A stretch of 64,000 bases of DNA. Origin: a virus. The DNA is taken from positions 1 through 64,000 of IMG/VR virus record IMGVR_UViG_3300013099_000017. The stretch is one strand, 5' to 3'. The stretch's first letter is position 1; each line of letters opens with the position of its first letter. Shown here piece by piece: positions 5,535-34,163 of this stretch. A program made the position numbers and the translations under genes. Under the pieces are notes generated by a model that was given only the letters and a program-made list of their open reading frames with translations, had not been told where the DNA came from and did no database searches.

Positions 5535-5825
5535 TTGTCGGTTCCAATAGGTAGAATATCGGAAATATGTAGTGGACATCAATGTTATCCACCATCAATT
5601 GCTATTTCTGCAAGTTCTAACGTATTTGCGGAATTACTACCAGTTCACAGAGTTGGGGACAGTTACATACCACATTGCTGTTTAAGTTGTCATGGGATAA
5701 CAACAGCGAGGGGATCATCATCTGTTTATGTAAACGGTAGACCTTCTGCACATATCGGAGCTATGGCGAGTTGTAGTAGTGTAATGATAACCGGAGCATC
5801 AACCGTTTGGATTGAGGGATCTTAA
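5535..5825 (+). CDS. 5.4: PAAR-repeat central spike tip protein (gp5.4-like)
   Basis: GHQCYPP..ASSNVF, VHRVGD..PHCC..HG..ARGSSSVYVNGRP; TTG start after AAGGAG; directly upstream of gp25. Confidence 0.88.
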   Translation: MSVPIGRISEICSGHQCYPPSIAISASSNVFAELLPVHRVGDSYIPHCCLSCHGITTARGSSSVYVNGRPSAHIGAMASCSSVMITGASTVWIEGS

Positions 5826-6217
5826 TGAGACAAACACAAGAAAATTTTTATTCAGATTTAGATTTAACATTTAATACACATCCACTAAACAGTGATATAT
5901 CCGTATTATTTGATGAAAATAGTATTGAACAAAATATGTATAATATATTAATGGCAAATAATGGTGATGCTAAATTTCATCCCGAAAAATGTCTTGGTAT
6001 TAGGGATATGTTATTTGAACCTATTAATATTATCACAGAAGAACAATTAAGAATAAAAATAACAAATATATTAGAATCGTGGATGCCGAGAATTGAGGTA
6101 ATACACATTGATGTTGAATCAATTAGGGATGAAGGTTATAGAATAACAATATCATACATAACGATAAATATTGTAAATGAACAACAAACTGTATTGTTTT
6201 TAGATAGGATAAGATAA
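5825..6217 (+). CDS. 25: Baseplate wedge subunit gp25
   Basis: YSDLDLTFNTHP..DI..DENSI..NIL..G..FHP..G.GI..LFEP..WMPRI pattern. Confidence 0.92.
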   Translation: MRQTQENFYSDLDLTFNTHPLNSDISVLFDENSIEQNMYNILMANNGDAKFHPEKCLGIRDMLFEPINIITEEQLRIKITNILESWMPRIEVIHIDVESIRDEGYRITISYITINIVNEQQTVLFLDRIR

Positions 6218-6221
6218 CAAA

Positions 6222-8042
6222 ATGGGAAAAAATTTAAAAGTAAACAAACTTGATTTTGATGATATAAAAGAAAATTTAATTGAGTTTCTAAAAGGTCAAG
6301 AAAAATTTAAAGATTATAATTTTTATGGTTCTGGATTTGATGTTATATTAGATTCATTGGCATATAATGCATTTTATATGGGAACGTTTGCTCATTTGTT
6401 AGCCAACGAAGCATTTATTGATTCTGCTAATTTAAGAGAAAGTTTAACAAGTAAAGCCAAATTATTTAATTATATTCCAAAATCATCATTTTCTGCTATT
6501 GCTGATGTTAATGTCAAATTAGATATTAATGAAGATAATGAACCTGCTGATGAAAAGTTTTTAATTGAACGGGGTGAATTTGCGGAATCCGGTAATAATC
6601 TATCAGGTTTAATAAGAAAATTCATTTTAATTGATGATGTGTATGTTTATAACAAATCAATTGCAACAAGTGGTTTTCTTTATCAGACTGATACACTTGA
6701 AATATATGAAGGTGAATATATTACAGATCACTTCACAAAAGATATTTCACAAAATTCAACTTGGAACCAAGTATACAGATTAACAGCAAAAGATGTTGAT
6801 TATCGTACAATAAGAATTAAAGTATATGATAGTGATACAAGTAGCAATTATCATACATATAAATTAGCTTCTGATTTTATGTTAATTAATGGCGATAGTC
6901 AAGTATTTTTTATTACTACTGATGATAAAGGGTATTATGAGATATTATTCGGCAATGATGTTTACGGTAAAGCTCTTGAAGATGGAAATTACATTGAAAT
7001 AACATATGTCGAAAATAAAGGCGAATTGGGTAATGATGCATCATTATTTGATTATATTGGTAAAGATATAATTGGTAGAGATTTAATGCCTGTTGATGTA
7101 ACCATCAATACTGAAATGGATTCTGATGGTGGTCGTGGTGAAGAAACATTAGAAGAACTTAAATACAATGTACCACATCATTATAAACGTCAAAATCGTT
7201 TGGTAACTATTGAAGATTATAAGTCTGTTCTTTTAGCTGAATACAATAATATTCAATCTATTAATGTTTGGGGTGGTGAAGATAATTATCCTAAAGTTTA
7301 TGGTAGAGTATTTATTTCAATTAAACCAAAAATAGGTAATATTTTATCATCTAAGGCAAAAGAGAAAATACAAGAAACAATACTACACAAATATAACATT
7401 GTTACCATTGATACAACAATTGTTGATGTTGATTTCTTATACTTAAATTTAACAAATAATACCAAATTTAAACCATTAGATACGGATAAATCTGCTGGTG
7501 AAATTGCAAATTTGGTTAATGATACTATTCATGATTATGATGATTTTCAAGTATCACGTTTCGATGGTTATTATTCAGATGCTTCTTTATATGAGCAAAT
7601 ATTAAATGCAGATCCATCAATCATTAGTACATATAATAATATTACATTAGAAAAACAAACCAAACCATCATTGGAAACTTCACAATCTTATGTGATTGAT
7701 TTTAATGGTGCGATTTTTAAAAATACAATTCTAAGTAATGAATTTACATTTAGAGGATTACCAAGTTATTTTGATGATGATGGTGAGGGTAATATTATAA
7801 TCCATTATGAAAGTTTAATTGATGGTGCAAAATATACTTATCTTGATGAATATTTTGGTACAATTGATTATGATACTGGAATATTAAATACTTCCAATAT
7901 TATTATTGATAATATTACAGATGGTGATTTTTTAATTACAACCGCTACACCAATCGAACCTGATTTTTATCCTTTAAGAAATAACATTATTAAAATTAAT
8001 AAAGTATCAATCGAAGTGACCGAATATAATGACAATAAATAA
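6222..8042 (+). CDS. 6: Baseplate wedge subunit gp6
   Basis: LDFDDIKENL..FL..Q..FKDYNF.GSG..LD.LAYN N-terminus; QNRLVT.EDY, VWGGEDN.P..YGRVFISIKP. Confidence 0.93.
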   Translation: MGKNLKVNKLDFDDIKENLIEFLKGQEKFKDYNFYGSGFDVILDSLAYNAFYMGTFAHLLANEAFIDSANLRESLTSKAKLFNYIPKSSFSAIADVNVKLDINEDNEPADEKFLIERGEFAESGNNLSGLIRKFILIDDVYVYNKSIATSGFLYQTDTLEIYEGEYITDHFTKDISQNSTWNQVYRLTAKDVDYRTIRIKVYDSDTSSNYHTYKLASDFMLINGDSQVFFITTDDKGYYEILFGNDVYGKALEDGNYIEITYVENKGELGNDASLFDYIGKDIIGRDLMPVDVTINTEMDSDGGRGEETLEELKYNVPHHYKRQNRLVTIEDYKSVLLAEYNNIQSINVWGGEDNYPKVYGRVFISIKPKIGNILSSKAKEKIQETILHKYNIVTIDTTIVDVDFLYLNLTNNTKFKPLDTDKSAGEIANLVNDTIHDYDDFQVSRFDGYYSDASLYEQILNADPSIISTYNNITLEKQTKPSLETSQSYVIDFNGAIFKNTILSNEFTFRGLPSYFDDDGEGNIIIHYESLIDGAKYTYLDEYFGTIDYDTGILNTSNIIIDNITDGDFLITTATPIEPDFYPLRNNIIKINKVSIEVTEYNDNK

Positions 8043-9714
8043 ACTTGCCCCATTAATCAGAAGTCAACTACCTTCATATGCTCACGATAAATATCCAACG
8101 TTTGTTTCATTTATAACAACGTATTTTGAGTGGTTAGATGAAGAAAATAACTATTCATATTTCTTAAATGAATTTAAATCAAATATAGATATAGATCAAT
8201 CCAATGATAATTTTGTTGAACAATTTTTACAAGAATTTGTGGAAGGTATTCCAACATTTGATTTAAAGATACCAAAGAATGAATTAGTTAAATTAATTCG
8301 TGAATTTTACATATCAAAGGGTACAGAAGAATCATTTAAATTCATTTTCCGAGTATTATACAACAAAGACGTTGATATTTCATATCCAAGAGATTATGTT
8401 TTATCATCATCCGATAATACTTATGGTGGTGATTTTATAATGAATGTTAGTCGTGATATTAATAAAGAATATTTCATAACAGATGATAGCATTATATACA
8501 TATATGATAAGTTATCAGGATTAAGGGCATTTGTTGATCAACTACAAGAAAAAATTGATGTATTAGGAAATCATTATTTTCAGGCTTATCTATCATCTTT
8601 CGATAATGGTTTATATAATCAGGAAGATATGGAATTAAAACTTCAAATTGATGATATTATATACAATACAACTGTTATTAGAACAATTAATGGAATTGAC
8701 GTTATAGATCCAGGTATTGCATTTACAGTTGGTGATGATGTTTATATTGATACAGATTTGATTAATGGTAATAGTGATTTTTTTACAAAGATTACTGCTG
8801 TTACAAAAGGTAGAATTGAAACAGTTGATATTGATGATATTGGTGATAATTATGTGGTTGGTGATTTTATTGATGTTGTTAATAAACATTTGACTACTGG
8901 ATTTGGATTTTCTGCTACTGTTGCAAAAATTGGTGGTTCTGGTGGTGTATTGAGTATTGATATATCCAATGGTGGATTTGAATATGAAGATGAACAGAGT
9001 GGATATATTACATCTAATTTTTCTGGAATTGAACCACTTATTCCTGCATCTTTCACATTAAAGGGTGATGGATTAGGGTCAATTAAACGTTTTGAAATAC
9101 AAAATAGTGGTATCATTTATGATGAAGGAAGTGTTGTATTAAAAACAACTGGTGGGCGTGATGAAGATTTAATTCCCATATTCTCTAATATATTTGAAAC
9201 TCCTAAATCAACAGCAAATCAAAAGGGTTTTACAAGTTATAATAATGTATTGACAGATAGTTGGTATTATCAATATTTTAGTTATTTAGTGTCAAGTTAT
9301 GAGCAACCTAATCAATGGAAACATATTATTAAAAAAATATTACATCCTGCTGGATTAGCACAATTTAATAGATGGTTATATGAATCAGAATCAGCACCAG
9401 ATGATATTATTGGATTTAATAAAAATGTTGTTGATAGTATATTGACTAAAATATTTGAATTAATTTTAGAACAATCAAATAATCCATTTTTAATTGGTGT
9501 TGAAAGTAAAGTACAAGACACACATTATATATTCAATTCAGGTTATATAATGGTTGGACATAATTTAAGAGATTTAGATTCTGAGAAATGCTTACAAAAT
9601 TTCAATTGGTCTGCATCATTATGGTATGATGAATCCATTGAGAGCATTTTAAGTGGAAAATCAATTGAACTAAATACTATTAACGAAAGTTATATTACAC
9701 AAACAATTACATAG
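8029..9714 (+). CDS. 7: Baseplate wedge initiator, gp7-like
   Basis: LIRSQLP...YPTFVSFI..YFEWL, IREFY.SKGTEESFKFIFR.LY, LTDSWYYQYFSY, LHPAG; sits between gp6 and gp8. Confidence 0.75.
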   Translation: MTINKLAPLIRSQLPSYAHDKYPTFVSFITTYFEWLDEENNYSYFLNEFKSNIDIDQSNDNFVEQFLQEFVEGIPTFDLKIPKNELVKLIREFYISKGTEESFKFIFRVLYNKDVDISYPRDYVLSSSDNTYGGDFIMNVSRDINKEYFITDDSIIYIYDKLSGLRAFVDQLQEKIDVLGNHYFQAYLSSFDNGLYNQEDMELKLQIDDIIYNTTVIRTINGIDVIDPGIAFTVGDDVYIDTDLINGNSDFFTKITAVTKGRIETVDIDDIGDNYVVGDFIDVVNKHLTTGFGFSATVAKIGGSGGVLSIDISNGGFEYEDEQSGYITSNFSGIEPLIPASFTLKGDGLGSIKRFEIQNSGIIYDEGSVVLKTTGGRDEDLIPIFSNIFETPKSTANQKGFTSYNNVLTDSWYYQYFSYLVSSYEQPNQWKHIIKKILHPAGLAQFNRWLYESESAPDDIIGFNKNVVDSILTKIFELILEQSNNPFLIGVESKVQDTHYIFNSGYIMVGHNLRDLDSEKCLQNFNWSASLWYDESIESILSGKSIELNTINESYITQTIT

Positions 9715-9726
9715 GACATATAAACC

Positions 9727-11286
9727 GTGGCTTCAATTATTAAAGATAAAGCAAGAGTATTTAATGCGAACCAATTCTTGAATTTATTTTCAACTGGTTC
9801 AAATCAAACTTGGCAATCGGGTGCGATTTATTCAACGAATGATATTGTTATTAATAATTATCGTGAATATGTTGCTACAACTTCCGGTACTGCTGGAGCT
9901 ACTCCACCAACACACACAACGGGTGCTTTATCTGATGGTGGTGTTATTTGGCAACATGTTAAACCTGCCTTAGTTACAAATTATTACAATAATAATTTAT
10001 ATATGGTTCTTGGTAAAACTGATGCATGGGATGATGAACAAAATCCACCACAAGCAATGAATTATACAAAAGAAGATTATAATAATTTAAATGATGCATT
10101 GTTCTTTAAGAAACTGAGTTCTGCTAATGCTACTATGGGTATTAAAAGAAATCAATGGACAAGTGGTATAATTTACGATGCTTTCAGAACTGATTTAGAA
10201 TTAGATACAATTGAATACTATGTTACCAATAATTCAAATAGAATTTATATTTGTCTTGATAACAATGATGGAATACCATCAACATCTGAACCAACTGATA
10301 TTAATACAACATTTGATTCATTTAAAACTGGTGATGGTTATACTTGGAAGTTTGTTGGTGAAGTATCGGATGCTAATTTCATATCAACTGATTATATTCC
10401 TGTTATTAAGGTATTATCGGATAATGGTTCAAAACAATGGGAAATTCAACAAAATTCTAAATCACAAGCATTATTATATGTTAATGTGTTGGATGGTGGA
10501 GCCATATTTGTTGATGGTGTTCCATCCGTGGATGTTGATGGAACTGCAATAGGTATCGCTACTCTAACTGGTGGATTTTTAACTGAAATTACATTAACCG
10601 ATATTGGTTCTAATTATGATATAGCACCATATGTTGCTATTATACCATTAGGTGCTACTGATCTTGGCATACATCAACCAACAATGACAACCGATGTAAC
10701 TTTAGGTGAAGTAACAGGATTTACTATTTTAAATGGTGGTCAATATAATACAGCCAATGTAATTACTGCTACAATTAATTCAGGAACAGGTACAGGTTGT
10801 ACAATTGAACCAGAATTTACAGGATTTACATTAACCGGATTTACAATAACAAGTGTCGATGGTGGTTCAAATTATTCAGATACAGATACAATCACAATTG
10901 ATGATGGTGATGGAAATGTGGAAGCACATGATTTAGTTGTTAATTCACATCTTGGTACTGTTTTAGGATTAGGTTCAAATATACTCGAAGATTGTAATGC
11001 TAAATATATTATAATAAACGACAATATAATTGATGATGAATCAGGTTATATTGATACCGATGTTGATTTTAGACAAGTATCATTAGTTGTCGATCCAAAT
11101 GATATGGGTACAGATCTTGCAACTGCATTAAGATATTATGGTCCGGCAAGTTCAGGATATGCTGGTGCTAGTCTAAACCAAAAAATAAATCCAGTTTCAG
11201 GTAGTTTGATATACATTGATAACATTGAAGCAATTCAAAGAACATCAAACCAACAAGAAAACATAAAAATAATTTTGAAATTTTAA
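9727..11286 (+). CDS. 8: Baseplate wedge subunit, gp8-like, with an inserted CBM-like module
   Basis: MASII....RVFNA..F, LGKTDAW.DE..PP, R.QWTSG.IYD, YYV.N...IYICLDN, GDGYTWKF; C-terminal IYIDN..AI.R...Q.ENIKIILKF. Confidence 0.8.
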   Translation: MASIIKDKARVFNANQFLNLFSTGSNQTWQSGAIYSTNDIVINNYREYVATTSGTAGATPPTHTTGALSDGGVIWQHVKPALVTNYYNNNLYMVLGKTDAWDDEQNPPQAMNYTKEDYNNLNDALFFKKLSSANATMGIKRNQWTSGIIYDAFRTDLELDTIEYYVTNNSNRIYICLDNNDGIPSTSEPTDINTTFDSFKTGDGYTWKFVGEVSDANFISTDYIPVIKVLSDNGSKQWEIQQNSKSQALLYVNVLDGGAIFVDGVPSVDVDGTAIGIATLTGGFLTEITLTDIGSNYDIAPYVAIIPLGATDLGIHQPTMTTDVTLGEVTGFTILNGGQYNTANVITATINSGTGTGCTIEPEFTGFTLTGFTITSVDGGSNYSDTDTITIDDGDGNVEAHDLVVNSHLGTVLGLGSNILEDCNAKYIIINDNIIDDESGYIDTDVDFRQVSLVVDPNDMGTDLATALRYYGPASSGYAGASLNQKINPVSGSLIYIDNIEAIQRTSNQQENIKIILKF

Positions 11287-11296
11287 GAGAAGATAA

Positions 11297-14200
11297 ATGC
11301 CAAAGAAAACGTTTAATACAGATCCTTATTTTGATGATTTTGATGAAAGTAAGAATTTTCATCAAATATTATATAAACCAAGATTTCCTATTCAAACAAG
11401 GGAAATGAATCAGCAACAATCTATTATAAAAAATCAGATTGAAAGATTTGGTGATCATATATTTAAGCATGGTTCTATCGTGGAAGATACTATTCCAAAA
11501 TATATCAATGATATGAATTATGTTAGATTGAAAGATTTGGATACAAATAACGAAGCTGTTAAAACTGAATTAATATTGGGTAAAAAATTAATTGGTAAAA
11601 CTACTGGAATTACTGCCAAATGTCAATTAGCAACCGATATTACAGAAAATGATCCACCAACAATTTTCATTAATTATTTAACCAGTTCACTAGATGGATT
11701 ACATAAAGTATTTGAAAATGGTGAAGAATTGATTGTGTATGATGATCAGAATAATCCAGTTTATTCATGTTATGTAAGATGTCCAACATGTATTGGTTCT
11801 GTTGAACCTGCTACTGAAACTATTTATCCTACTGGAAAATCTGCAATATTTACTATTACACAAGGTATTTATTATGTGTTTGGTAGTTTTGTTTATACTC
11901 CAACTCAAACAATCATTTTAAAGAAGTATGATATTGATCCGAGCGTTACGGTTGGATTAAATATTATTCAAACTATTGTTACTGAACATGATGATCAAAG
12001 TTTATTAGATAATGCTTTAGGATATCCAAATTATACAAGTCCTGGTGCTGATCGTTATAAAATTCAATTAAGTTTAGAAAAAATACCAAATGATTCACCA
12101 GAACAAGATAATTGGATAAATATTGCAGTTATTGAATTTGGTATATTAAAAGAAATCAAAGATAAACCTGAATATGCTGACATTATGGATATGATGGCCA
12201 GACGTACATATGATGAATCTGGTGATTATACAGTAAAACCATTTTTAGTTAATTTCAAAAATTTATTAAAATCATCAAAAGATTCAACTGATGGTATTTA
12301 TTGGGCTGATGAAACTACACCACCTGAAACATTAGAAGATTATAAAAATAGATTTATTGCTACAATGAGTGATGGTAAAGCATATGTTAAAGGATATGAA
12401 ATTGAAAGATTATCCAATTCAAATATATCTATTGAACGTGCAAGGGATGAAGGTGTTATTGAAGATACAGCTATCCGTTATGTTCAAGGAAATTACATTT
12501 ATGTTGCGTTAAATCCTCAATCAAATACATATCCTTTATATGATACTGCTACTGAAAAATATGCGGTGGATTTTGAAAATGTTTCATTCTATGATGATTA
12601 TAATGTATGGGAAAATGGAGTGCCTGCATCAAGTTCTATTGGTGTGGCAAAAGTTAAATCACAATTAAATACTGGTAAAACCATAAAAGATTTTAGTGGT
12701 GCTGTTGATGTTCCTGTATTCAAATTATATTTATTTGAAATGAATATTACTTCACCAAGCACATTTAATGATGTTAAATCTGTATACAAATCTGGTATTA
12801 ATACATTTGCATGTAAAGTTTTAACTGATGATGAATGGACAGAAATTGATGCTGGTGCTGGAAATGGTTCAGGTTTAGAAGAACCTAAAATTTATGATCC
12901 TGATTCTAATATGATGTTAAGTAAATTAGCAGAACCTTGGACAAGTGGAATTAATAATGTTACAATGACAACCAGAAAGAAATTTACTGGTCAATCTAAT
13001 GCTGGTGGTGAATTTACCTTTTCTACTGGTACAAATGAATTATTTGAATCATTTAATCCTAATAAATGGGTATTCTCTGAAAAAGATGGTACAGGTAATT
13101 ACATATATGTACCCGTGGATTCAGGTCAAGTTTCAATAACATCAAATGCAACAAACCAAGATTGTGTTGTAACAGGCTTTGGAACAAATCAACAATGTTG
13201 TGTTATTGTGGATATTATATCAAATAATGTCCCTTCAAAAACTAAAAACTTAATTTCAACAAGTCTTAATATTGAATTAACTTCTGCTAATTTTAAAGAA
13301 TGGCATTTATTAAATCAAGTTGATGGTAGACGTATATTGTCAGTAACAAATATTACTGATCTTGATTCTGCTAATTGGTTTGATGTAACTTCTGATTTCA
13401 TATTCAATGATGGTGCAAAAGATAATACATATGATTTATGTAAAATACAAAGAACATTAAATTCAGAACCTACTTATGGTGGTGATAGTAAAGCAATCTA
13501 TGAGGTTGTTTTTGAATATTTTGAACATTTAAATACTAACAATGGATATATGTTTACAGCTTCATCATATCAGTCAATGATTGATGATGATAATCAAGAT
13601 TTCGATTATGAAGATATTCCTTTATATGTTTCTCAAAATGGCGAGGACTATGAATTAAGACGTTGTTTAGATTTCCGTGTTGATGAAGCTGATGATGGTC
13701 AAGGGGGTCAATTTGTTGAAACTGGCTATATACCTTCACACGATTCAAACATAATTCATGATATTACATTTTATTTACCAAGAATTGATAAAATTGTTAT
13801 TGATTCTATAAGTAAAAAATTTATTGCGGTTAAAGGAATACCATCTTTAAAACCTATTGAACCAAAAACACCAAAAGGTGCAATGGCTTTATATACAGTT
13901 AATATTGCTCCATATACACTTGATGTTAAAAGAGATGTGTATAAAAAGTATGTGAATAATCGTAGATTCACTATGAGAGATATTAGTAAGATTGAAAAAC
14001 GTGTTGATAATTTAGAATATTACACAACATTTACTATGCTTGAAAAAGATGCTGAATCAACATCCGTTAAAGATGCTAATGGTTTGGATAGATTTAAAAA
14101 TGGTTTAATCACAGATAATTTTGCTAATTTTACTGCTTCTGATACTAAACATCCAGAATTCAATGGTGCTATTGATATTAAAAATTATGAAATGCGTCCA

Positions 14201-17137
14201 ACTTTTTATACAAGAAAGATTCACTTATCTCTTAATGTCAATACATCTGAAAATTATCAAATAACTGGTAATATGATTACACAACCATATAGTAGTATTG
14301 TGTTTCAGAAACAATTATTATCAAGTAAAACATTATCTGTAAATCCATATTTCATTTTCAATTGGATAGGAACTCTTGAATTGATTCCATCTTATGATTC
14401 AGATAAACAAATTGATCGTAAACCTGATTTAGTTATTAATATTGATATTGGTATGGAAGGTGGTAATGATTTACCAGATGGTCAATTAAATGAAACATTA
14501 TTTGGAAATTGGGAACCAGTTGGTTTAAGAAATGTTGAAGATTCCGAAGTTGACGATCTTCTAACAGAAGGTTTAGACTTTGTTGGTAATGATAGTTTTT
14601 CAAGAGCATCCGTTGGTACACGCAGAGTAGTTGATGGTAGATTTGTACAAGCGGTTAATGTTGTTAAAGATGTTACTGATAGAAAATCATTGGGTGATAG
14701 AATTACTGATGTAAATATAATTCCATTTGTAAGAAAACAAGATATTCAATTTGTTGCTCAATCAATGCGTCCAAATACAGTTATATATCCATTTTTTGAT
14801 GATATAGATGTTTCTCAATATTGTAGACCATTAAACGGTTCAAATGGTGATGAATTAAAAACTACTGGTAATGGTGAATTTATTGGTGTATTTAGTGTAC
14901 CAAATACTGCTGATGTTAATTTCCATACTGGTGATAGAATATTTAAATTAACAGATGATTATATTAATTCTGATGATCCTGATACCACTACAACAACAGC
15001 AACAAGTAAATTTTGGTCTGGTGGATTAAAAACAGAAGTTCAAGAAACTATTTTAGATGTAGTTCATGAAGAAACTTTGGTGGTTGATGTTGTTGGTCCG
15101 GCTGTTCCACCACCACCTGCTCCACCATCACCACCAAGACTTGTATGCCCTTTAGGTTGGAGGACAGTACGGATGGCTGGTTTTCAACAATGTTTAGCAC
15201 CAAACCCACCTAGTGATCCAATTGCTCAATCATTTACAATTGAATTAGGTGATTCTACTGGTTGCTTCTTAACTGAAATTGATGTATATTTTTCATCTAA
15301 ATCTGATGAAGAACATGTTTGGGTAGAATTACGCCCAATGGTTAATGGATATCCTTCTGATAACAAAATATTACCATTTAGTCGTACTATTAAAGTGTCA
15401 AGTAGTGTTAATATTTCTGATGATGGTAGTTTACCTACACGTTTCACATTTGATTCACCTGTTTATGTTAGAAAAGACGAAGATTATTGTTTTGTTGTTG
15501 GTTCAAAAGATCAAGCATATCGTGTTCATGTTGCAAGATTAGGTGGTATGGGTAAAACTGGTGGTATGATTGCAACTCAACCATCAATGGGTTCATTGTT
15601 TAAGTCTCAAAATGGCAAAACATGGAACGCTGAACAAATGGAAGATATTAAATTCACTCTATATAAAGCAGATTTCAATCGTGATAACGATATGATTCTG
15701 AAATATATTGATAATGGATTTGCTGTTGATGATTTACCATATAATCCTATTGAAACAGAAATTAACTCAGATACTATTCGAGTTAAACATAGAAATCATG
15801 GATTTATTCCAGGCGATAAATTGTCTATGGATTTATTAACAAAAACACAATTTCAAATTGTTATTAAATCTGGTAATTTAATTGTCGGTCAAAAATTAAG
15901 TACAACTAGTACAGGTAGTTGTGTTGTCACATCATCAACATTTGTAGAAGATACGACAACTCCATCCGGTCATAGTGGTAAACGATATAATTGTACTGTT
16001 AAAGATATCATAGGTTATATTACTGCTGGTGAAGGAAATCTAGTTACCGCTAATCAATATATTGAAGAAGTTAAACAACCGTGGGTATTAGATAAATTAG
16101 ATATTGATCAAGTTCAGCTTACAAATTGGCAAAATGGATTATCTTCCTGTGTTGGTTATTTTGAAGAATCTATTAATGCTGATGTAAATGGTATACCATT
16201 AGATGCATTAACAAATCCTGTTCAACCCTTAATGGTATTGGATGTTGATTCATTAGATAGTTATACAATTGAAGTTGCTGGATATCCTGCTACTATTACT
16301 GGATTTACTGGTGGTGATGGGGGACAAGTTCAAGGACATGTTCAAGTTGATATGTTCAATCTTGGTATTGATTTCAAAAAGAATGATGCTACATTGAGAG
16401 GTGAATTAATAGGTACTACTCATGGTAGCACAAATTCAGTATTTGATAACTATAATCCTTCTCCATTAGTAGATTTTACAGATAACTCAAATCAAAATTT
16501 ATCACAACCAATAAAGGTTTCAAATCCACATAATAATGGTATTACTGGTGATAAATCTATGGATATTTCATTAATAGCAACTGCAATTAGTGGGGATGTT
16601 AATGTATCACCTGTATGTATGATTCCATCAATATCATTTACATCAATAACAAATCGTGTTGATTGGAATGATCAGGCACATTATGAGGTTGCTCCAAATC
16701 ATGATGCATTATGGGATTCAAATCCACAACCTGATAAAGCAAGATGGGTCGATGAAACAGATCCGGTAGATGGTAAAGAAACTGCTAAGTATATTCTTAA
16801 AAAAGTATCATTGTCAAATCCTGCTACTATGATAAAAATATATGCAGATATATTTAAACCAAATAATTCGGCTGTTGATTTTTATTATAAAACATTACCA
16901 GTGGATAAATCAACGGGTCTTGAAGAAGAATCGTGGATTTATGTACCATTTGATGATGAATTTGTATCATCAACTGCTGATGAATTTATTGAAGCATCAA
17001 TTACAATCGGTGATGAAGATTTAGGTCAAGCCCCAATTCCAGATTTTAAAGAATTTAGAATTAAAATGGTATTGAAAACTAAAAATACTGCTACACCACC
17101 GAGAGTTAAGAAATTCAGAGCAATTGCACTAACATAA
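11297..17137 (+). CDS. Large virion structural protein, DUF4815/VrlC-like
   Basis: FNTDPYFDDFDE.KNFH.IL.KP..PIQ.RE..Q.QSI...QIERFGDHIF..GS start; APGADR-like SPGADRYKI, RRTYDESGDY, RRFTMRDI..IE.RV..LEYYT, DPIAQSF motifs. Confidence 0.85.
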   Translation: MPKKTFNTDPYFDDFDESKNFHQILYKPRFPIQTREMNQQQSIIKNQIERFGDHIFKHGSIVEDTIPKYINDMNYVRLKDLDTNNEAVKTELILGKKLIGKTTGITAKCQLATDITENDPPTIFINYLTSSLDGLHKVFENGEELIVYDDQNNPVYSCYVRCPTCIGSVEPATETIYPTGKSAIFTITQGIYYVFGSFVYTPTQTIILKKYDIDPSVTVGLNIIQTIVTEHDDQSLLDNALGYPNYTSPGADRYKIQLSLEKIPNDSPEQDNWINIAVIEFGILKEIKDKPEYADIMDMMARRTYDESGDYTVKPFLVNFKNLLKSSKDSTDGIYWADETTPPETLEDYKNRFIATMSDGKAYVKGYEIERLSNSNISIERARDEGVIEDTAIRYVQGNYIYVALNPQSNTYPLYDTATEKYAVDFENVSFYDDYNVWENGVPASSSIGVAKVKSQLNTGKTIKDFSGAVDVPVFKLYLFEMNITSPSTFNDVKSVYKSGINTFACKVLTDDEWTEIDAGAGNGSGLEEPKIYDPDSNMMLSKLAEPWTSGINNVTMTTRKKFTGQSNAGGEFTFSTGTNELFESFNPNKWVFSEKDGTGNYIYVPVDSGQVSITSNATNQDCVVTGFGTNQQCCVIVDIISNNVPSKTKNLISTSLNIELTSANFKEWHLLNQVDGRRILSVTNITDLDSANWFDVTSDFIFNDGAKDNTYDLCKIQRTLNSEPTYGGDSKAIYEVVFEYFEHLNTNNGYMFTASSYQSMIDDDNQDFDYEDIPLYVSQNGEDYELRRCLDFRVDEADDGQGGQFVETGYIPSHDSNIIHDITFYLPRIDKIVIDSISKKFIAVKGIPSLKPIEPKTPKGAMALYTVNIAPYTLDVKRDVYKKYVNNRRFTMRDISKIEKRVDNLEYYTTFTMLEKDAESTSVKDANGLDRFKNGLITDNFANFTASDTKHPEFNGAIDIKNYEMRPTFYTRKIHLSLNVNTSENYQITGNMITQPYSSIVFQKQLLSSKTLSVNPYFIFNWIGTLELIPSYDSDKQIDRKPDLVINIDIGMEGGNDLPDGQLNETLFGNWEPVGLRNVEDSEVDDLLTEGLDFVGNDSFSRASVGTRRVVDGRFVQAVNVVKDVTDRKSLGDRITDVNIIPFVRKQDIQFVAQSMRPNTVIYPFFDDIDVSQYCRPLNGSNGDELKTTGNGEFIGVFSVPNTADVNFHTGDRIFKLTDDYINSDDPDTTTTTATSKFWSGGLKTEVQETILDVVHEETLVVDVVGPAVPPPPAPPSPPRLVCPLGWRTVRMAGFQQCLAPNPPSDPIAQSFTIELGDSTGCFLTEIDVYFSSKSDEEHVWVELRPMVNGYPSDNKILPFSRTIKVSSSVNISDDGSLPTRFTFDSPVYVRKDEDYCFVVGSKDQAYRVHVARLGGMGKTGGMIATQPSMGSLFKSQNGKTWNAEQMEDIKFTLYKADFNRDNDMILKYIDNGFAVDDLPYNPIETEINSDTIRVKHRNHGFIPGDKLSMDLLTKTQFQIVIKSGNLIVGQKLSTTSTGSCVVTSSTFVEDTTTPSGHSGKRYNCTVKDIIGYITAGEGNLVTANQYIEEVKQPWVLDKLDIDQVQLTNWQNGLSSCVGYFEESINADVNGIPLDALTNPVQPLMVLDVDSLDSYTIEVAGYPATITGFTGGDGGQVQGHVQVDMFNLGIDFKKNDATLRGELIGTTHGSTNSVFDNYNPSPLVDFTDNSNQNLSQPIKVSNPHNNGITGDKSMDISLIATAISGDVNVSPVCMIPSISFTSITNRVDWNDQAHYEVAPNHDALWDSNPQPDKARWVDETDPVDGKETAKYILKKVSLSNPATMIKIYADIFKPNNSAVDFYYKTLPVDKSTGLEEESWIYVPFDDEFVSSTADEFIEASITIGDEDLGQAPIPDFKEFRIKMVLKTKNTATPPRVKKFRAIALT

Positions 17138-29852: not shown

Positions 29853-30305
29853 GTGGAAATCATATTTAAAGATATAACAACTATTGAAAAAGGTTTTATT
29901 GCACATGGCGTTAATAGGCGTGTGAAAATGGGATCTGGTGTTGCTAAATCATTATATACCAAATGGGAGCAAGTTAAGATTCAATATATGAGTCGTAAAA
30001 ATCCTGTTCCAGCGTTAGGTAGTATTGATGAAGTTATTATCAATAAAGATTTATCGGTATTCAATTGCTATACACAAGAATTTTATGGGTTTGCAGGTGT
30101 TTATGCTAACATAACTGCTATTGTTGACTCTCTTGAAAAGGTGTGTAATGTAGCAAAAAATAATCTTATTACCACAATTTATATACCTAAAATTGGTTGT
30201 GATCGTGGTGGTTTAAGATGGGAAGATGTTGAACCGAAATTAAAGAAACTTGAAGATAAACACAATATTGAATTTGTTGTTTGTCGATATTTTGATAAAG
30301 GGTAA
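29853..30305 (+). CDS. Macro-domain (ADP-ribose binding/hydrolase) protein
   Basis: DIT.....FIAHGVN....MGSGVAK.L, FNCYTQ..YG, IPKIGC.RGGL.W..V motifs. Confidence 0.85.
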   Translation: MEIIFKDITTIEKGFIAHGVNRRVKMGSGVAKSLYTKWEQVKIQYMSRKNPVPALGSIDEVIINKDLSVFNCYTQEFYGFAGVYANITAIVDSLEKVCNVAKNNLITTIYIPKIGCDRGGLRWEDVEPKLKKLEDKHNIEFVVCRYFDKG

Positions 30306-30310
30306 TTATT

Positions 30311-31162
30311 ATGAGCAGTAAAGATAACTTAGGTGATCGTATTAAAAGTTATGAACGTTTGGAAACAGATAAATTTTTGATTCCAATGTTACCAACAATC
30401 GTTCGTTTAGATGGTCGGTCATTTAGTAAATTCACAAAATCATTTGAACCATTTGATGAAGATATGTCAAAAGCTATGGTGGAAACAACTAAATTTTTGG
30501 TTAAAGAATCTAATGCTTTAATTGGTTATACACAATCGGATGAAATCACATTAATTCTATATACAGATAATGTTGATTCACAAATATTTTTCAATGGTAA
30601 GAAACACAAATTGTTAAGTAATTTAGCATCATTAGCATCTGTAAAATTTTACGATGAATTGATTCATTTAAAACAAGTTAAAGATTTACCTGATTTATAT
30701 CCAAGTTTTGATTGTAGACTTTTTCAAGTTCCTACCAAAATGGAAGCATGGAACGCATTATTGTGGCGTGTACAGGATTCAATTAAAAACAGTATTCAAA
30801 TGCTGGCACAATCACATATTAGTCATACAGCACTACAAGGTAAAAACCAGAAACACCAACTTCAAATGTTAGATGATCTTGGTGTTCATTGGGAAGAATT
30901 ACCAAATCGTTTTAAGGAAGGTACATTTGTTCGTAAAGTGGTTTATGATAAATTGATTTATGAAGATGATCTTGAACGTGAAACCATCAAAGTAAAACGC
31001 AGTAAAGTTGATGTTGTTGATAATGGTTGTGATTTTAATAAAATTGAAAACCGAATTGAATACATTTTTGGTGATGATACAAATGCTGTTTATATTGATG
31101 TAAAAAATAAATCAGAAGGATTTATAAAAAATATTAAGAAAATATTTGCAAAAGCGGTCTGA
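30311..31162 (+). CDS. thg1: tRNA(His) guanylyltransferase Thg1-like 3'-5' polymerase
   Basis: LGDRIK.YE, VRLDGRSFSKFT, GYTQSDEIT (catalytic D/DE), FDCR.F, WR..D...NSI.M.A. Confidence 0.9.
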   Translation: MSSKDNLGDRIKSYERLETDKFLIPMLPTIVRLDGRSFSKFTKSFEPFDEDMSKAMVETTKFLVKESNALIGYTQSDEITLILYTDNVDSQIFFNGKKHKLLSNLASLASVKFYDELIHLKQVKDLPDLYPSFDCRLFQVPTKMEAWNALLWRVQDSIKNSIQMLAQSHISHTALQGKNQKHQLQMLDDLGVHWEELPNRFKEGTFVRKVVYDKLIYEDDLERETIKVKRSKVDVVDNGCDFNKIENRIEYIFGDDTNAVYIDVKNKSEGFIKNIKKIFAKAV

Positions 31163-31174
31163 GTGTGCTATACT
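31146..31174 (+). promoter_or_regulatory. Sigma70 promoter of the radical SAM gene / gene 44
   Basis: TTGCAA-N17-TATACT with TG extension. Confidence 0.75.
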
Positions 31175-31212
31175 GCTCAGATCATAAATAAATTAATGTT
31201 AAGGAGTTTAAC

Positions 31213-32202
31213 ATGAATAAAATAAAATTACCAACGGGCTTTCTTTTTACAGATACTTATTCAAAGGGTGAACTTGAAACTTTATCCATTGGGGATTATG
31301 GTAAATCGAAAAATATTAAAGCGGATTTTCTTGGATATACAAGGGAATTAAATGGTGTTCCGAGTGGCGAGATACAGCCATTACAGGAAAAATGGGTTAT
31401 TACTTTATCAACCCAATATGGTTGTCCAATGAAATGTACATTTTGTGATGTACCGGAAGTTGAATTTCGAGGCAATGCAACATTTCAAGATTTAAAAGAT
31501 CAATTATATAATGCATTTAAATGTTTCCCTGATGTAAAATATACAGATCGTTTAAATATACATTTTGCGAGAATGGGAGAACCAACATTTAATTCTGAGG
31601 TAATATCATTTAGCAATTGGTTATCTATTGCTAAACCTCAAATTCAAGAAGAATTGGGTATTAGAATTGAAGTTATACACCCTGTATTTACTACAATGTT
31701 GCCAAAGAGTGAGAAATCATTAGATCGTATTGCTCAGTTTGCAATTATTAAAAACCGAATATTTACTGGACAAGCAGGATTACAATTCAGTATTAATTCA
31801 ACATGTGATAAACAACGTGATGAAATGTTTAAGGGACAAGCATTGTCATTAGAACAAATTTCTAAATTCGCCAAAAAATTACCACCACCAATAGGCAGAA
31901 AATATTGTTTGAATTTTGCATATGCTTCTGGTAATGAATGTAATGGTGAAAAATTAGCAAAGTTATTTAATCCGGATAATTGGATGGTTAAGATTACACC
32001 AATTCATAATAATAATGCTTGTCGTGAAAATGGTATTGTAACTATTGATGGATATAGTAATTTTTATCCATATAAACAACCGGAACAAAGTTTTAAAAAT
32101 GCTGGGTTTGATGTATTAATTTTCATCCCTTCACAGGATGAAGAAGATGGATTGATTACATGTGGAAATGCTATTCTTGGGGGTAGCAAATTAAAGATTT
32201 AA
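31213..32202 (+). CDS. Radical-SAM enzyme, RlmN/Cfr-like
   Basis: STQYGCPMKCTFC (CxxxCxxC), RMGEP, LQFSINST, C-terminal ITCGN corresponding to the RlmN catalytic Cys (ACGQL). Confidence 0.75.
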   Translation: MNKIKLPTGFLFTDTYSKGELETLSIGDYGKSKNIKADFLGYTRELNGVPSGEIQPLQEKWVITLSTQYGCPMKCTFCDVPEVEFRGNATFQDLKDQLYNAFKCFPDVKYTDRLNIHFARMGEPTFNSEVISFSNWLSIAKPQIQEELGIRIEVIHPVFTTMLPKSEKSLDRIAQFAIIKNRIFTGQAGLQFSINSTCDKQRDEMFKGQALSLEQISKFAKKLPPPIGRKYCLNFAYASGNECNGEKLAKLFNPDNWMVKITPIHNNNACRENGIVTIDGYSNFYPYKQPEQSFKNAGFDVLIFIPSQDEEDGLITCGNAILGGSKLKI

Positions 32203-32226: not shown

Positions 32227-33174
32227 ATGGATGTTGTAGAAAACCAATTTTTGTTTGTGGAAAAATATCGTCCACAAACAATTAAAGATGTAATTTTACC
32301 AAAAAGATATAAATCAATTTTTAATGAAATTGTAAAGAAAGGCGATCACCAACATTTATTGTTATCGGGTGGAGCAGGTATTGGAAAAACGACAATCGCA
32401 AAAGCATTATGTAATGAATTAAAATCTGATGTACTTGTAATTAATGCTTCTGAAAATGGAAATATTGATACATTAAGAATACCTATCAGGAATTTTGCTT
32501 CAAGTGTATCAATAACAGCACGAAGAAAAGTTGTTATTTTGGATGAAGCTGATTATTTAAATGCACAATCTACACAACCTGCACTAAGAAGTTTCATGGA
32601 AGAATTCGCAAGAAATTGCCGTTTTATATTAACATGCAATTATGTTAATCGTATCATAGAACCATTAAGATCAAGATGTTCTGTTATTGAATTCAATTTA
32701 ACCAAACCAGAAAAATTAACTGTTGCCAAAGAATTTTTACATCGTACCGAAGAAATATTGAAATTGGAAGGTGTTGAATTTGATCGTCATGTAATTGGTA
32801 ATATAATTAAACAACATAATCCCGATTTCAGAAAAATATTAAATGAAATCCAAAGTAATATTGTTGATGGAAAATTAAATCAAAAATTAACTAATACATT
32901 ATCTGTTAATGATGTTGAAGATTTAACAGGTTGGTTAAAAAATAAAGAATTTAAATTATTGAGAGAATGGGTTGCTTTAAATAGTGATATTAGTTTGGTT
33001 GAATTAAATCACATGGTTTATAATAAACTTGATGTTATGTTGAAACCTCAATCAATTCCGGAAGCAATTATGATTATGAATGAATATCAATATAAGGTTG
33101 GGTTTGTTGCTGATCAGGAAATTAATACAATTGCGTTCTTTACAGAATTAATGATGTCGGTGGAATTTAAGTAA
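32227..33174 (+). CDS. 44: Clamp loader large subunit gp44
   Basis: LFVEKYRPQTI.D.ILP, GGAGIGKTT, INAS, ILDEADYL, SRC. Confidence 0.97.
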   Translation: MDVVENQFLFVEKYRPQTIKDVILPKRYKSIFNEIVKKGDHQHLLLSGGAGIGKTTIAKALCNELKSDVLVINASENGNIDTLRIPIRNFASSVSITARRKVVILDEADYLNAQSTQPALRSFMEEFARNCRFILTCNYVNRIIEPLRSRCSVIEFNLTKPEKLTVAKEFLHRTEEILKLEGVEFDRHVIGNIIKQHNPDFRKILNEIQSNIVDGKLNQKLTNTLSVNDVEDLTGWLKNKEFKLLREWVALNSDISLVELNHMVYNKLDVMLKPQSIPEAIMIMNEYQYKVGFVADQEINTIAFFTELMMSVEFK

Positions 33175-33476
33175 TGGATAGATTGAATCTAAATGTTCAC
33201 ATGGATATTATTGATAAACTTGTTCTTAACTTAGTGTCATGTAAGTTGAATGATGAACATACCAGAATAATGACAAGTTTTATGATTGAAAATTATTTGG
33301 ATCATAATGATATTTATGATTATATAGTTGTTTGTGATGAACGGAATAATTCACATATTGATAGTGGAATGTTAATATATGAGGTTATTATATATAATGA
33401 TGATACTAATCTGTATATATTCAGGCGTAAAGTTTATGATAAAAATGGTAAAGTTATAGTGGAGGTTATTGTATGA
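33174..33476 (+). CDS. Small protein resembling the tail-sheath (gp18) C-terminal domain, copy 1
   Basis: LNDEHTR....IENYL...IYDYIVVCDERNN...IDSG.LIYEV.I. Confidence 0.55.
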   Translation: MDRLNLNVHMDIIDKLVLNLVSCKLNDEHTRIMTSFMIENYLDHNDIYDYIVVCDERNNSHIDSGMLIYEVIIYNDDTNLYIFRRKVYDKNGKVIVEVIV

Positions 33477-33772
33477 GTGATAATAGTAGATTTAGTAAAT
33501 TGTTGAAAATAGTTGATGATTGTCTTTATCATTATTATACTATACTGAATGATACCACCACCAGAACAGGTTTAAAATTGATATTAAATGAAAGTCTGGA
33601 AAAATTTATTCAAGGTGATGAATTTATTATAATATGTGATGAACGTATTAATACACCAGATGTAATTGATAATCATGAATTAAGATGTTTGGTGCATGTT
33701 TATGATCAAGGTGTAGAATATTTAATCCAACGTAAATTAACATCTATGGGGTGTTCTTATTATGAAGAATGA
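33473..33772 (+). CDS. Small protein resembling the tail-sheath (gp18) C-terminal domain, copy 2
   Basis: LNDTTTR..LK..LNESL....EFIIICDERINTPDVIDNHEL...V.V. Confidence 0.55.
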   Translation: MSDNSRFSKLLKIVDDCLYHYYTILNDTTTRTGLKLILNESLEKFIQGDEFIIICDERINTPDVIDNHELRCLVHVYDQGVEYLIQRKLTSMGCSYYEE

Positions 33773-34163
33773 TGCATTTTATTATATTGGTTTAATTAAT
33801 ACAAAATCTGAAATGCCCGAAGATTCTGAAATTAAATTAAATTATCTTCCATTTTTAAGTAATCGTAATTTTAGTTATACTATTGATACTGTATTAATGG
33901 CTAATGAAATGAATCGTTTTCCAGATTGTAGCAAAGTGCTACAATTTAAATATTTGTTTCATGCAATTAAAAAACGAAAACGTTTTGCTAAGTGGACAAA
34001 ACCACAAAAACCTTCAATAGATTTTTTGATTGTTAAAAAGTATTATGGTTATAATAACAAAAATACAGAAATAGCAATGAAACTTTTAACCAAAGCACAA
34101 TTAAAAATCATTAAATCAAAAATGAATATTGGTGGTGATAAAAAAAGGAATTATGACGTATGA
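33762..34163 (+). CDS. 62: Clamp loader small subunit gp62
   Basis: Y.PF..NR..SY..DTV..ANEMN......LQF.YL...I.KRKRF.KW.K, VK.YYGY....A..LL. Confidence 0.93.
   Translation: MKNDAFYYIGLINTKSEMPEDSEIKLNYLPFLSNRNFSYTIDTVLMANEMNRFPDCSKVLQFKYLFHAIKKRKRFAKWTKPQKPSIDFLIVKKYYGYNNKNTEIAMKLLTKAQLKIIKSKMNIGGDKKRNYDV

Follow-up and report, generated by a model that had tools for sequence, protein, structure and literature searches.

In the contractile tail of phage T4, Domain IV of the sheath protein gp18 (residues 1–24 and 510–659) lines the sheath interior and keeps the subunits joined in both the extended and the contracted state. Full-length gp18 polymerizes by itself into polysheaths, and a protein comprising residues 1–510 does not polymerize (PMC3004832). 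In solved myophage tails the subunits are connected by a “handshake”, a four-stranded sheet composed of two strands of the inner domain (domain I) and the N-arm and C-arm of two other subunits; a stand-alone sheath initiator of the same fold engages arms likewise (PMC13450770). Here we describe two small genes, ORF1 and ORF2 (ORF, open reading frame), whose products copy this polymerization module without the N-arm and are encoded between the clamp-loader genes gp44 and gp62 of an uncultured T4-like myovirus. The analyzed window of 64 kilobases (kb) is the first part of the 144-kb IMG/VR record IMGVR_UViG_3300013099_000017, which has 29% G+C and an estimated completeness of 79% according to CheckV. 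ORF1 (33174–33476, + strand, 100 amino acids, aa) and ORF2 (33473–33772, + strand, 99 aa) were identified by ORF calling, profile comparison and structure modeling as stand-alone mini-proteins resembling the C-terminal part of Domain IV. They represent two types, which are called ORF1 type and ORF2 type in the following, ORF2 being a divergent second mini-protein.

Isolated sheath C-terminal modules between gp44 and gp62

An original prediction, made from the nucleotide letters, had placed two reading frames of about 100 aa between genes 44 and 62 and had interpreted them as sheath C-terminal domains that share a motif. Both genes are found at this position on the + strand, and alignment of their products (31% identity over 68 residues, BLASTP E 5e-4; 26–31% across alignments) confirms that the motif is common to the two. 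The invariant sheath motifs ND..TR and VVCD(E).NNTP..ID occur in both proteins, with the deviations that ORF1 is devoid of the P (NN-SHID) and that the first N is replaced by I in ORF2 (RINTPDVID). Each protein matches the “tail sheath” profile phrog_10581 at profile positions ~836–893 of 915 (ORF1, E 2e-4; ORF2, E 9.5e-5), and neither of them, searched singly, matches PF17482 even at E ≤ 1. Using tblastn against 50,697 phage records, 187 records were matched by ORF1 and 228 by ORF2 (best E 2e-6 and 2e-5, respectively); in the best 80 rows of these longer lists, every match (80 of 80) fell under an annotated tail sheath gene or, in a few records, in a place that was unannotated or labeled “hypothetical”. 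A profile of three sequences, consisting of ORF1, ORF2, and one orthologue (profile A1), aligned to residues 548–648 of solved T4-type gp18 chains of 656–659 residues with E-values from 3e-6 to 6.5e-5, the DRINVRRL helix lying at one end of the aligned region and the PARSINYITLNF strand at the other. Judged by these comparisons, the likeness of the two proteins to the sheath C-terminus is real and far beyond chance.

Both proteins start at the equivalent of gp18 residue ~548, and the N-terminal arm and the PF04984 core are absent. The proposal that the minis lack the rest of the sheath thus holds for everything N-terminal of this residue. It had also included the terminal, PARSINYITLNF-like strand, and this part has to be corrected: the strand is contained in the A1 alignment and appears among the C-terminal strands of the AlphaFold2 models (E81–90 and E93–95 in ORF2, E80–88 and E94–99 in ORF1). 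Furthermore, the end of ORF2 (T-x-x-G-x-S-Y-x-E) resembles, as judged by eye, the sheath end “TATGVSFEE” of relatives, and the C-terminal GC.YY motif of ORF2 recurs in the relatives P0005 and P0008. Both proteins are cytoplasmic; signal peptides and twin-arginine motifs are absent from them, and they begin with MDRLNLNVHMD (ORF1) and MSDNSRFSKLL (ORF2) and have their N-termini within the first helix of the fold. No match to the PF04984 sheath core exists anywhere in the 144-kb record, nor did searches with PF17482, PF04984, phrog_23, and phrog_10581 identify a full-length cognate sheath in it.

The AlphaFold2 models, which were built with an 85-sequence alignment of family members, reached a mean predicted local distance difference test (pLDDT) score of 95.4 and a predicted template modeling (pTM) score of 0.86 for ORF2, and values of 89.1 and 0.82, respectively, for ORF1. 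Both begin with two helices, after which come three to four strands, and the C-terminal strand seems to complement the sheet of its own protein. In Foldseek searches of the PDB, the top matches of ORF2 were the T4-type sheaths 9ev2 and 9mkb (prob 1.0; template modeling score normalized by the query, TMq, 0.62–0.67; 22–25% identity), and the sole good row for ORF1 was the T4 gp18 chain 9mkb_AK (prob 0.98; root-mean-square deviation, rmsd, 1.6 Å over 74 columns; 28% identity). With VIA-align, ORF2 obtained Z-scores of 8.0–8.9 on the sheaths of phages and extracellular contractile injection systems (for example, Z 8.5 with an rmsd of 2.2 Å over 80 residues), but also 6.6–8.9 on chains of the gp25/TssE type (T4 gp25 alone, 7.2–8.1), up to 8.3 on inositol monophosphatases, and up to 8.1 on pantothenate synthetases, two groups of unrelated enzymes. 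Among the gp25/TssE-type chains, the one at Z 6.6 stems from a type VI secretion system (T6SS) baseplate and is taken here as TssE, and a 135-residue chain from the baseplate cup of phage KP1 (Z 8.9, model residues 1–97) is presumably the gp25 counterpart. Because the fold scores alone are middling and unrelated α/β enzymes reach Z 8, the assignment to the sheath rests on sequence and fold together. A sheath C-terminal match, as sought for the original prediction, was found on both levels, in the profile (E 3e-6) and in the fold, and ORF1 and ORF2 are thus securely identified as isolated sheath C-terminal (Domain IV) modules.

Three described proteins are close enough to be compared with the minis. 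The C-terminal part of Domain IV in T4-type gp18 (PDB 3J2M, 9MKB, 9EV2; PF17482) shares with them a homologous sequence (25–28% identity), the invariant motifs, and the predicted fold. The minis differ from gp18 in comprising only ~100 residues, without N-terminal arm, PF04984 core, and surface domains, and in their location in the clamp-loader operon, whereas the sheath gene lies beside the tube gene. A protein of sheath domain-I-like fold that naturally stands alone is gp25/TssE (PF04965 GPW_gp25; PDB 5IW9, 5IV5, 6GJ1), which has ~130 aa and takes part in the handshake (PMC13450770). In contrast to gp25/TssE, the minis contain the sheath-specific NNTP..ID motif and are encoded outside the baseplate module. 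A gp25 paralogue was rejected as an explanation, since the minis do not match PF04965 and a gp25 of the phage itself is encoded next to gp6 (5825–6217). Finally, the small conserved early protein Cd.3 of T4 (DUF7355, PF24051) resembles the minis in size and predicted fold: in the BFVD, the ORF2 model matched DUF7355 proteins with prob 1.0 (VR7 Cd.3, TMq 0.59 and target-normalized score, TMt, 0.63; Cronus and EcS1, TMq 0.59). T4 cd.3 (L029:5335–5610) was verified as a DUF7355 member (PF24051, E 1e-32), and the T4 record marks an early promoter between cd.2 and cd.3. Kinship with this family was nevertheless rejected, because the hhalign profile probability was 0.7%, the minis have no PF24051 match, and Cd.3 lacks the sheath motif.

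The upstream neighbor of ORF1 is the clamp-loader large subunit gp44 (32227–33174, + strand; PF00004, PF21328 Gp44_lid, and phrog_168 with E 1.8e-104), and the gene following ORF2 codes for the small subunit gp62 (33762–34163, + strand; PF16790, E 6.8e-10; phrog_225, E 4.8e-30). With both flanking genes identified by Pfam and PHROG matches, the predicted placement of sheath C-terminal modules inside the replication gene block is substantiated. The four genes are tightly packed: the gp44 stop codon shares bases with the first codon of ORF1 (TAATG), as does the ORF1 stop with the start codon of ORF2 (ATGA), a GGAGG sequence is located 7 nucleotides ahead of ORF2, and gp62 starts 11 nucleotides inside the end of ORF2. 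Since the genes are coupled, lie on the same strand, and are not preceded by a T4-type late-promoter consensus, ORF1 and ORF2 are likely co-transcribed with the clamp-loader genes. From 23.8 to 41.3 kb, neither strand contains the late-promoter consensus TATAAATA; as this motif is not enriched across the entire window (14 observed vs. 22 expected), its absence is weak evidence for the timing of expression. A scan for sigma-70 promoters found 58 sites at 58 expected and was uninformative in this AT-rich DNA.

The two-gene stretch is conserved in further contigs. In six loci (L003–L008), N39S in ORF2 is the single substitution that separates it from the window, and both frames are intact in at least eight contigs, the longest of which has 207,615 bp. 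Three related lineages carry one mini each in the same gp44|gp62 slot, either of the ORF1 type (P0003 in L009, 79% identity; P0004 in L012, about 36–42% by alignment) or of the ORF2 type (P0005 in L010 and L011, 41% identity), so that the slot holds a mini gene in all four related lineages sampled. The concern that the homologs might be fragments of a broken full-length sheath gene is answered by these intact and positionally conserved genes. The slot itself deserves attention as a tightly coupled gene pair that carries cargo genes in four related lineages. A search of IMG/VR with profile A1 retrieved seven loci at 30–33% identity.

A family of stand-alone mini-sheaths

An exhaustive HMMER search of 1.84 billion representative sequences detected 620 proteins with E-values of 1e-3 or lower; the long proteins among the matches listed align near their own C-terminal end. 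About 86 of the best 150 matches are short relatives, defined as proteins of 65–231 aa with an initial M that do not represent sheath fragments. PF17482 is matched by 56 of 85 short relatives (E ≤ 0.01, best 1.6e-15), and the mini profile in turn finds the extreme C-termini of full-length sheaths with 100–135 bits. ORF1 and ORF2, which do not reach PF17482 singly, can thus be regarded as divergent family members that are tied to the sheath family via the profile. Nearest neighbors in the ESM Atlas form several clusters of mostly viral, hypothetical proteins of ~100 aa. In cultured phages, by comparison, the stand-alone design is rare: sheath matches were obtained at 2721 places in 2679 records, i.e., 42 extra places, and the four records listed with two places belong to phages of 263–386 kb. 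To judge from their sequences and gene contexts, ORF1 and ORF2 belong to a large family of stand-alone mini-sheaths that are encoded in early or accessory regions, mainly by uncultured phages. This family appears to be undescribed; our literature search found nothing specific on stand-alone sheath C-domains, sheath-sensing defense systems, or structural-protein decoys.

A tree of the domain places ORF1 and ORF2 in separate mini-only clades (support 0.81 and 0.95) and the full-length sheaths in a compact cluster elsewhere. A recent tandem duplication was rejected on the basis of these different clades and the 26–31% identity between the two proteins; their separate placement points instead to an old duplication or a double acquisition. 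Likewise, the capture of the sheath domain is old, because the tree puts both ORFs far from any sheath. With a mean tree distance of 3.25, as compared with 1.49 for sheaths, the minis are about twice as divergent. A column-by-column comparison of 50 sheaths with 89 minis revealed which parts of the domain were kept. The motifs FE.ND..TR, DY.VVCDE.NNTP..ID, and L..DV are conserved in both groups alike. Conservation restricted to sheaths is seen in the DR.NVRRL helix, at G52 and Y54, in the IKP.R..E.I hairpin, and at the residue that opens the C-terminal arm.

Other members of the family differ from ORF1 and ORF2 in their termini. A twin-arginine pattern (RR.FLK followed by a hydrophobic stretch) is present in 25 of the 86 listed short relatives, and three relatives match PF10518. 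Such N-termini of the twin-arginine translocation (Tat) type, reading MNRRNFLK... before the hydrophobic stretch, are seen in P0113, P0065, P0122, P0119, P0141, and about 20 more proteins, and P0141 additionally has a lipobox-like LMGC. At the opposite end, several minis (e.g., P0015, P0089, and P0143) terminate in a recurrent ..Y..AMKV(V/I)E tail. In three longer relatives (P0037, P0043, and P0123) the sheath C-terminal domain is fused to a fragment of a T4-type portal protein (PF07230, profile positions ~200–307). The loci given for these fusions are L028:7574–8521 and L027:206–1798. The contexts of P0037 and P0043 contain small genes without structural-family matches, and P0037 and P0123 also have an N-terminal region of ~110 aa in common.

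Gene contexts vary in the family as well, those examined being early or accessory regions. In the loci L015, L016, and L013 the mini gene is part of a T4-like replication block, beside genes for a YAcAr protein and an N6 methyltransferase. The YAcAr gene (PF10686) lies directly upstream and overlaps the mini gene in all three (L013:38–421, L015:9654–10004, L016:2515–2865), which together represent two separate minis, P0113 and P0025. On a 175-kb phage contig (L014:9387–10004), a gene for the Gabija anti-defense protein Gad2 (PF26128) overlaps the start of a Tat-type mini, and Ro60/TROVE and Macro genes occur at the same locus. In L017 and L018 the mini gene is located just ahead of a split DNA polymerase gene.

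Possible roles of the mini-sheaths

The minis probably mimic the sheath and serve in a conflict, be it with the host or with competing phages. As to the function itself, we tentatively favor, as a possibility that still falls short of being probable, that they antagonize a host factor, an immune sensor of the conserved sheath core being the most likely target. According to this model, the minis would take no part in building the phage's own tail. They would be soluble mimics of the most conserved sheath surface, namely the ND..TR loop and helix start and the VVCDE.NNTP..ID strand and loop, and, being made earlier than the real sheath, would bind whatever recognizes this surface. Such binding would occupy the sensor without providing the full-length, polymerizing ligand, and with two divergent paralogues more than one variant of the sensor would be covered. 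A soluble mimic is favored because the minis are small, fast-evolving proteins with divergent paralogues and an early placement, because their polar face was kept while the lattice parts were relaxed, and because of the portal fusions and the anti-defense neighbors. Evolution resembling an arms race is suggested by the ratio of non-synonymous to synonymous substitution rates (dN/dS), which was 0.63 for ORF1 as opposed to 0.09 for gp44 and 0.18 for gp62 in the same genome pair, by the larger tree distances among minis, and by the separate clades of ORF1 and ORF2. The neighbors cited for a role in conflict are Gad2 beside one relative, YAcAr beside two, and, in the present phage, the Macro and Thg1-like genes just upstream of gp44. 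Mimicry of the decoy type gains somewhat from the combination of a kept motif with a relaxed strand and helix, and from the fusions to portal fragments. The portal protein is an established target of Avs-type sensors. An extension of this idea, which we consider unlikely, is that the minis are the first “virion-epitope decoys”, early-made stand-alone pieces of conserved virion proteins (the sheath core and, in relatives, also a portal fragment) that would blind host receptors; if true, it would imply an undiscovered class of bacterial tail-sheath sensors.

Several points weigh against a sensor-blocking mimic. To our knowledge, no defense system is known that senses the tail sheath, and none was found in the literature. 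A survey from 2026 mentions the sheath only as a possible, unidentified defense target (PMC13581612). A mimic that binds a sensor could also trigger it instead of blocking it. The dN/dS of ORF1 in the one close genome pair compared is based, by rough estimate, on ~26 non-synonymous and ~11 synonymous changes and is indistinguishable from neutrality. Lastly, about a quarter of the listed short relatives have Tat-type signals, and these proteins, if exported, would miss cytoplasmic sensors, so that the family may not have a single function. The Tat-signal relatives fit neither the immune-decoy idea nor that of a sheath cap well.

The latter idea, also part of the original prediction, is that the minis poison or cap the assembly of foreign contractile machines, i.e., of co-infecting myophages, host tailocins, or the T6SS, whereby an acceptor sheet without N-arm would stop sheath growth or sequester subunits. 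The copied region is indeed part of what gp18 needs for polymerization and inter-subunit connectivity (PMC3004832), the domain-I-like sheath initiator provides a precedent for a stand-alone protein that engages arms (PMC13450770), and the ORF2 model resembles gp25/TssE as well as sheaths (Z 6.6–8.9). Early-gene placement and fast evolution would suit a competition between phages, too. However, the hairpin and arm positions conserved in sheaths are relaxed in the minis, which is unexpected for a protein that docks to the lattice; moreover, the sheath of the phage itself would have to be exempt, the Tat-signal relatives would be in the wrong compartment, and the portal-fragment fusions have no place in a sheath lattice. 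We regard this function as rather doubtful. A contribution to the phage's own tail, in which the mini as a regulator or chaperone holds the arms of new sheath subunits and so keeps polysheaths from forming before baseplate and tube are ready, seems improbable. It would make sense of the matching domain in the minis, given that full-length gp18 self-polymerizes into polysheaths (PMC3004832), and of the retention of a mini gene in the same slot of the four lineages. Cultured T4-like phages do without such a protein, however, as indicated by the mere 42 extra places in the 2679 sheath-matching records. In addition, the genes sit with replication genes and have no late-promoter consensus nearby, the minis evolve faster than sheaths, which is a poor fit for the partner of a slowly evolving protein, and relatives bear export signals.

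Alternatively, the minis could be exapted small domains with a job unrelated to sheath partners, for instance an α/β binding module for replication, nucleotide, or membrane targets, in which the motif was kept for the fold only. The fold is a common two-layer α/β architecture on which inositol monophosphatases and pantothenate synthetases score like sheaths, the contexts range from the clamp-loader slot over YAcAr and methyltransferase genes and Gad2 to the position before DNA polymerase, and the Tat-signal subfamily suggests several destinations. Polar residues, however, make up most of the positions that were kept (N, D, T, R, C, D, E, N, N, D), and these positions coincide with those invariant in sheaths. 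This favors a retained interaction over mere packing, and we think that an unrelated function is unlikely. The least credible explanation is that the minis are non-functional relics, left behind when illegitimate recombination copied the 3′ end of a sheath gene into the clamp-loader operon. The pairwise dN/dS, which is not clearly below 1, would agree with this scenario, as would the failure of either ORF alone to reach the Pfam threshold. Against it stand frames that remain uninterrupted in all contigs seen and in orthologues with as little as 36–42% identity, a motif that is invariant or nearly so in 85 divergent relatives, confident AlphaFold2 models, the coupled reading frames with GGAGG ahead of ORF2, and the position of both ORFs far from any sheath in the tree. 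By this evidence the relic interpretation, which has very little probability left, is already largely refuted.

Among the protein modules that make up contractile injection systems, the sheath inner domain ranks with the most conserved. Its occurrence in a large, fast-evolving family of free-standing proteins, which are encoded among early genes and in some cases carry export signals or portal fragments, points to a role beyond the construction of tails. Should the minis block immune sensors, as favored here, the sheath would be a sensed phage pattern and the minis a handle for finding the sensor. Should they instead poison the sheaths of others, they would act as natural inhibitors against myophage tails, tailocins, or the T6SS.

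Gene neighborhood and other features of the record

The replication block around the mini genes is encoded on the + strand. It contains a gp45-like clamp (28905), followed by a Macro domain protein (29853; PF01661, E 1.5e-5), a Thg1-like 3′–5′ nucleotidyltransferase (30311; PF04446, E 2.4e-28), and a radical-SAM-like protein (31213) whose weak match (E 1e-4) is below the Pfam cut-off. The last three genes (29853–32202) directly precede gp44 and could be a counter-defense or RNA-repair cluster within the replication block. Downstream of gp62 follow, in this order and on the same strand, an 86-aa ORF, RegA, dUTPase, a DsbA-like protein, and the gp43 DNA polymerase (36896).

The 144-kb record begins in the baseplate module and ends among genes for ribonucleotide reductase (RNR) and the salvage of nicotinamide adenine dinucleotide (NAD). 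The baseplate block (5535–11286) comprises a PAAR protein (PF05488, 5535), gp25 (PF04965, 5825–6217, E 6e-8), and then gp6-, gp7-, and gp8-like wedge proteins; it is followed by an ORF of 1946 aa (11297–17137). Outside the window, the large subunit of RNR (1113 aa; L026:1406–4744, record positions 126405–129746) has an HNH-endonuclease match at residues 351–392 ahead of the main RNR match at 450–1112, which suggests an inserted homing element or intein. In the same part of the record (L026:11769–15529), a cytidyltransferase/Nudix protein (NadR/NMNAT-like) is encoded near a nicotinamide phosphoribosyltransferase (phrog_448, E 8e-148). The two form an NAD-salvage pair of the kind that phages use against NAD-depleting defenses.

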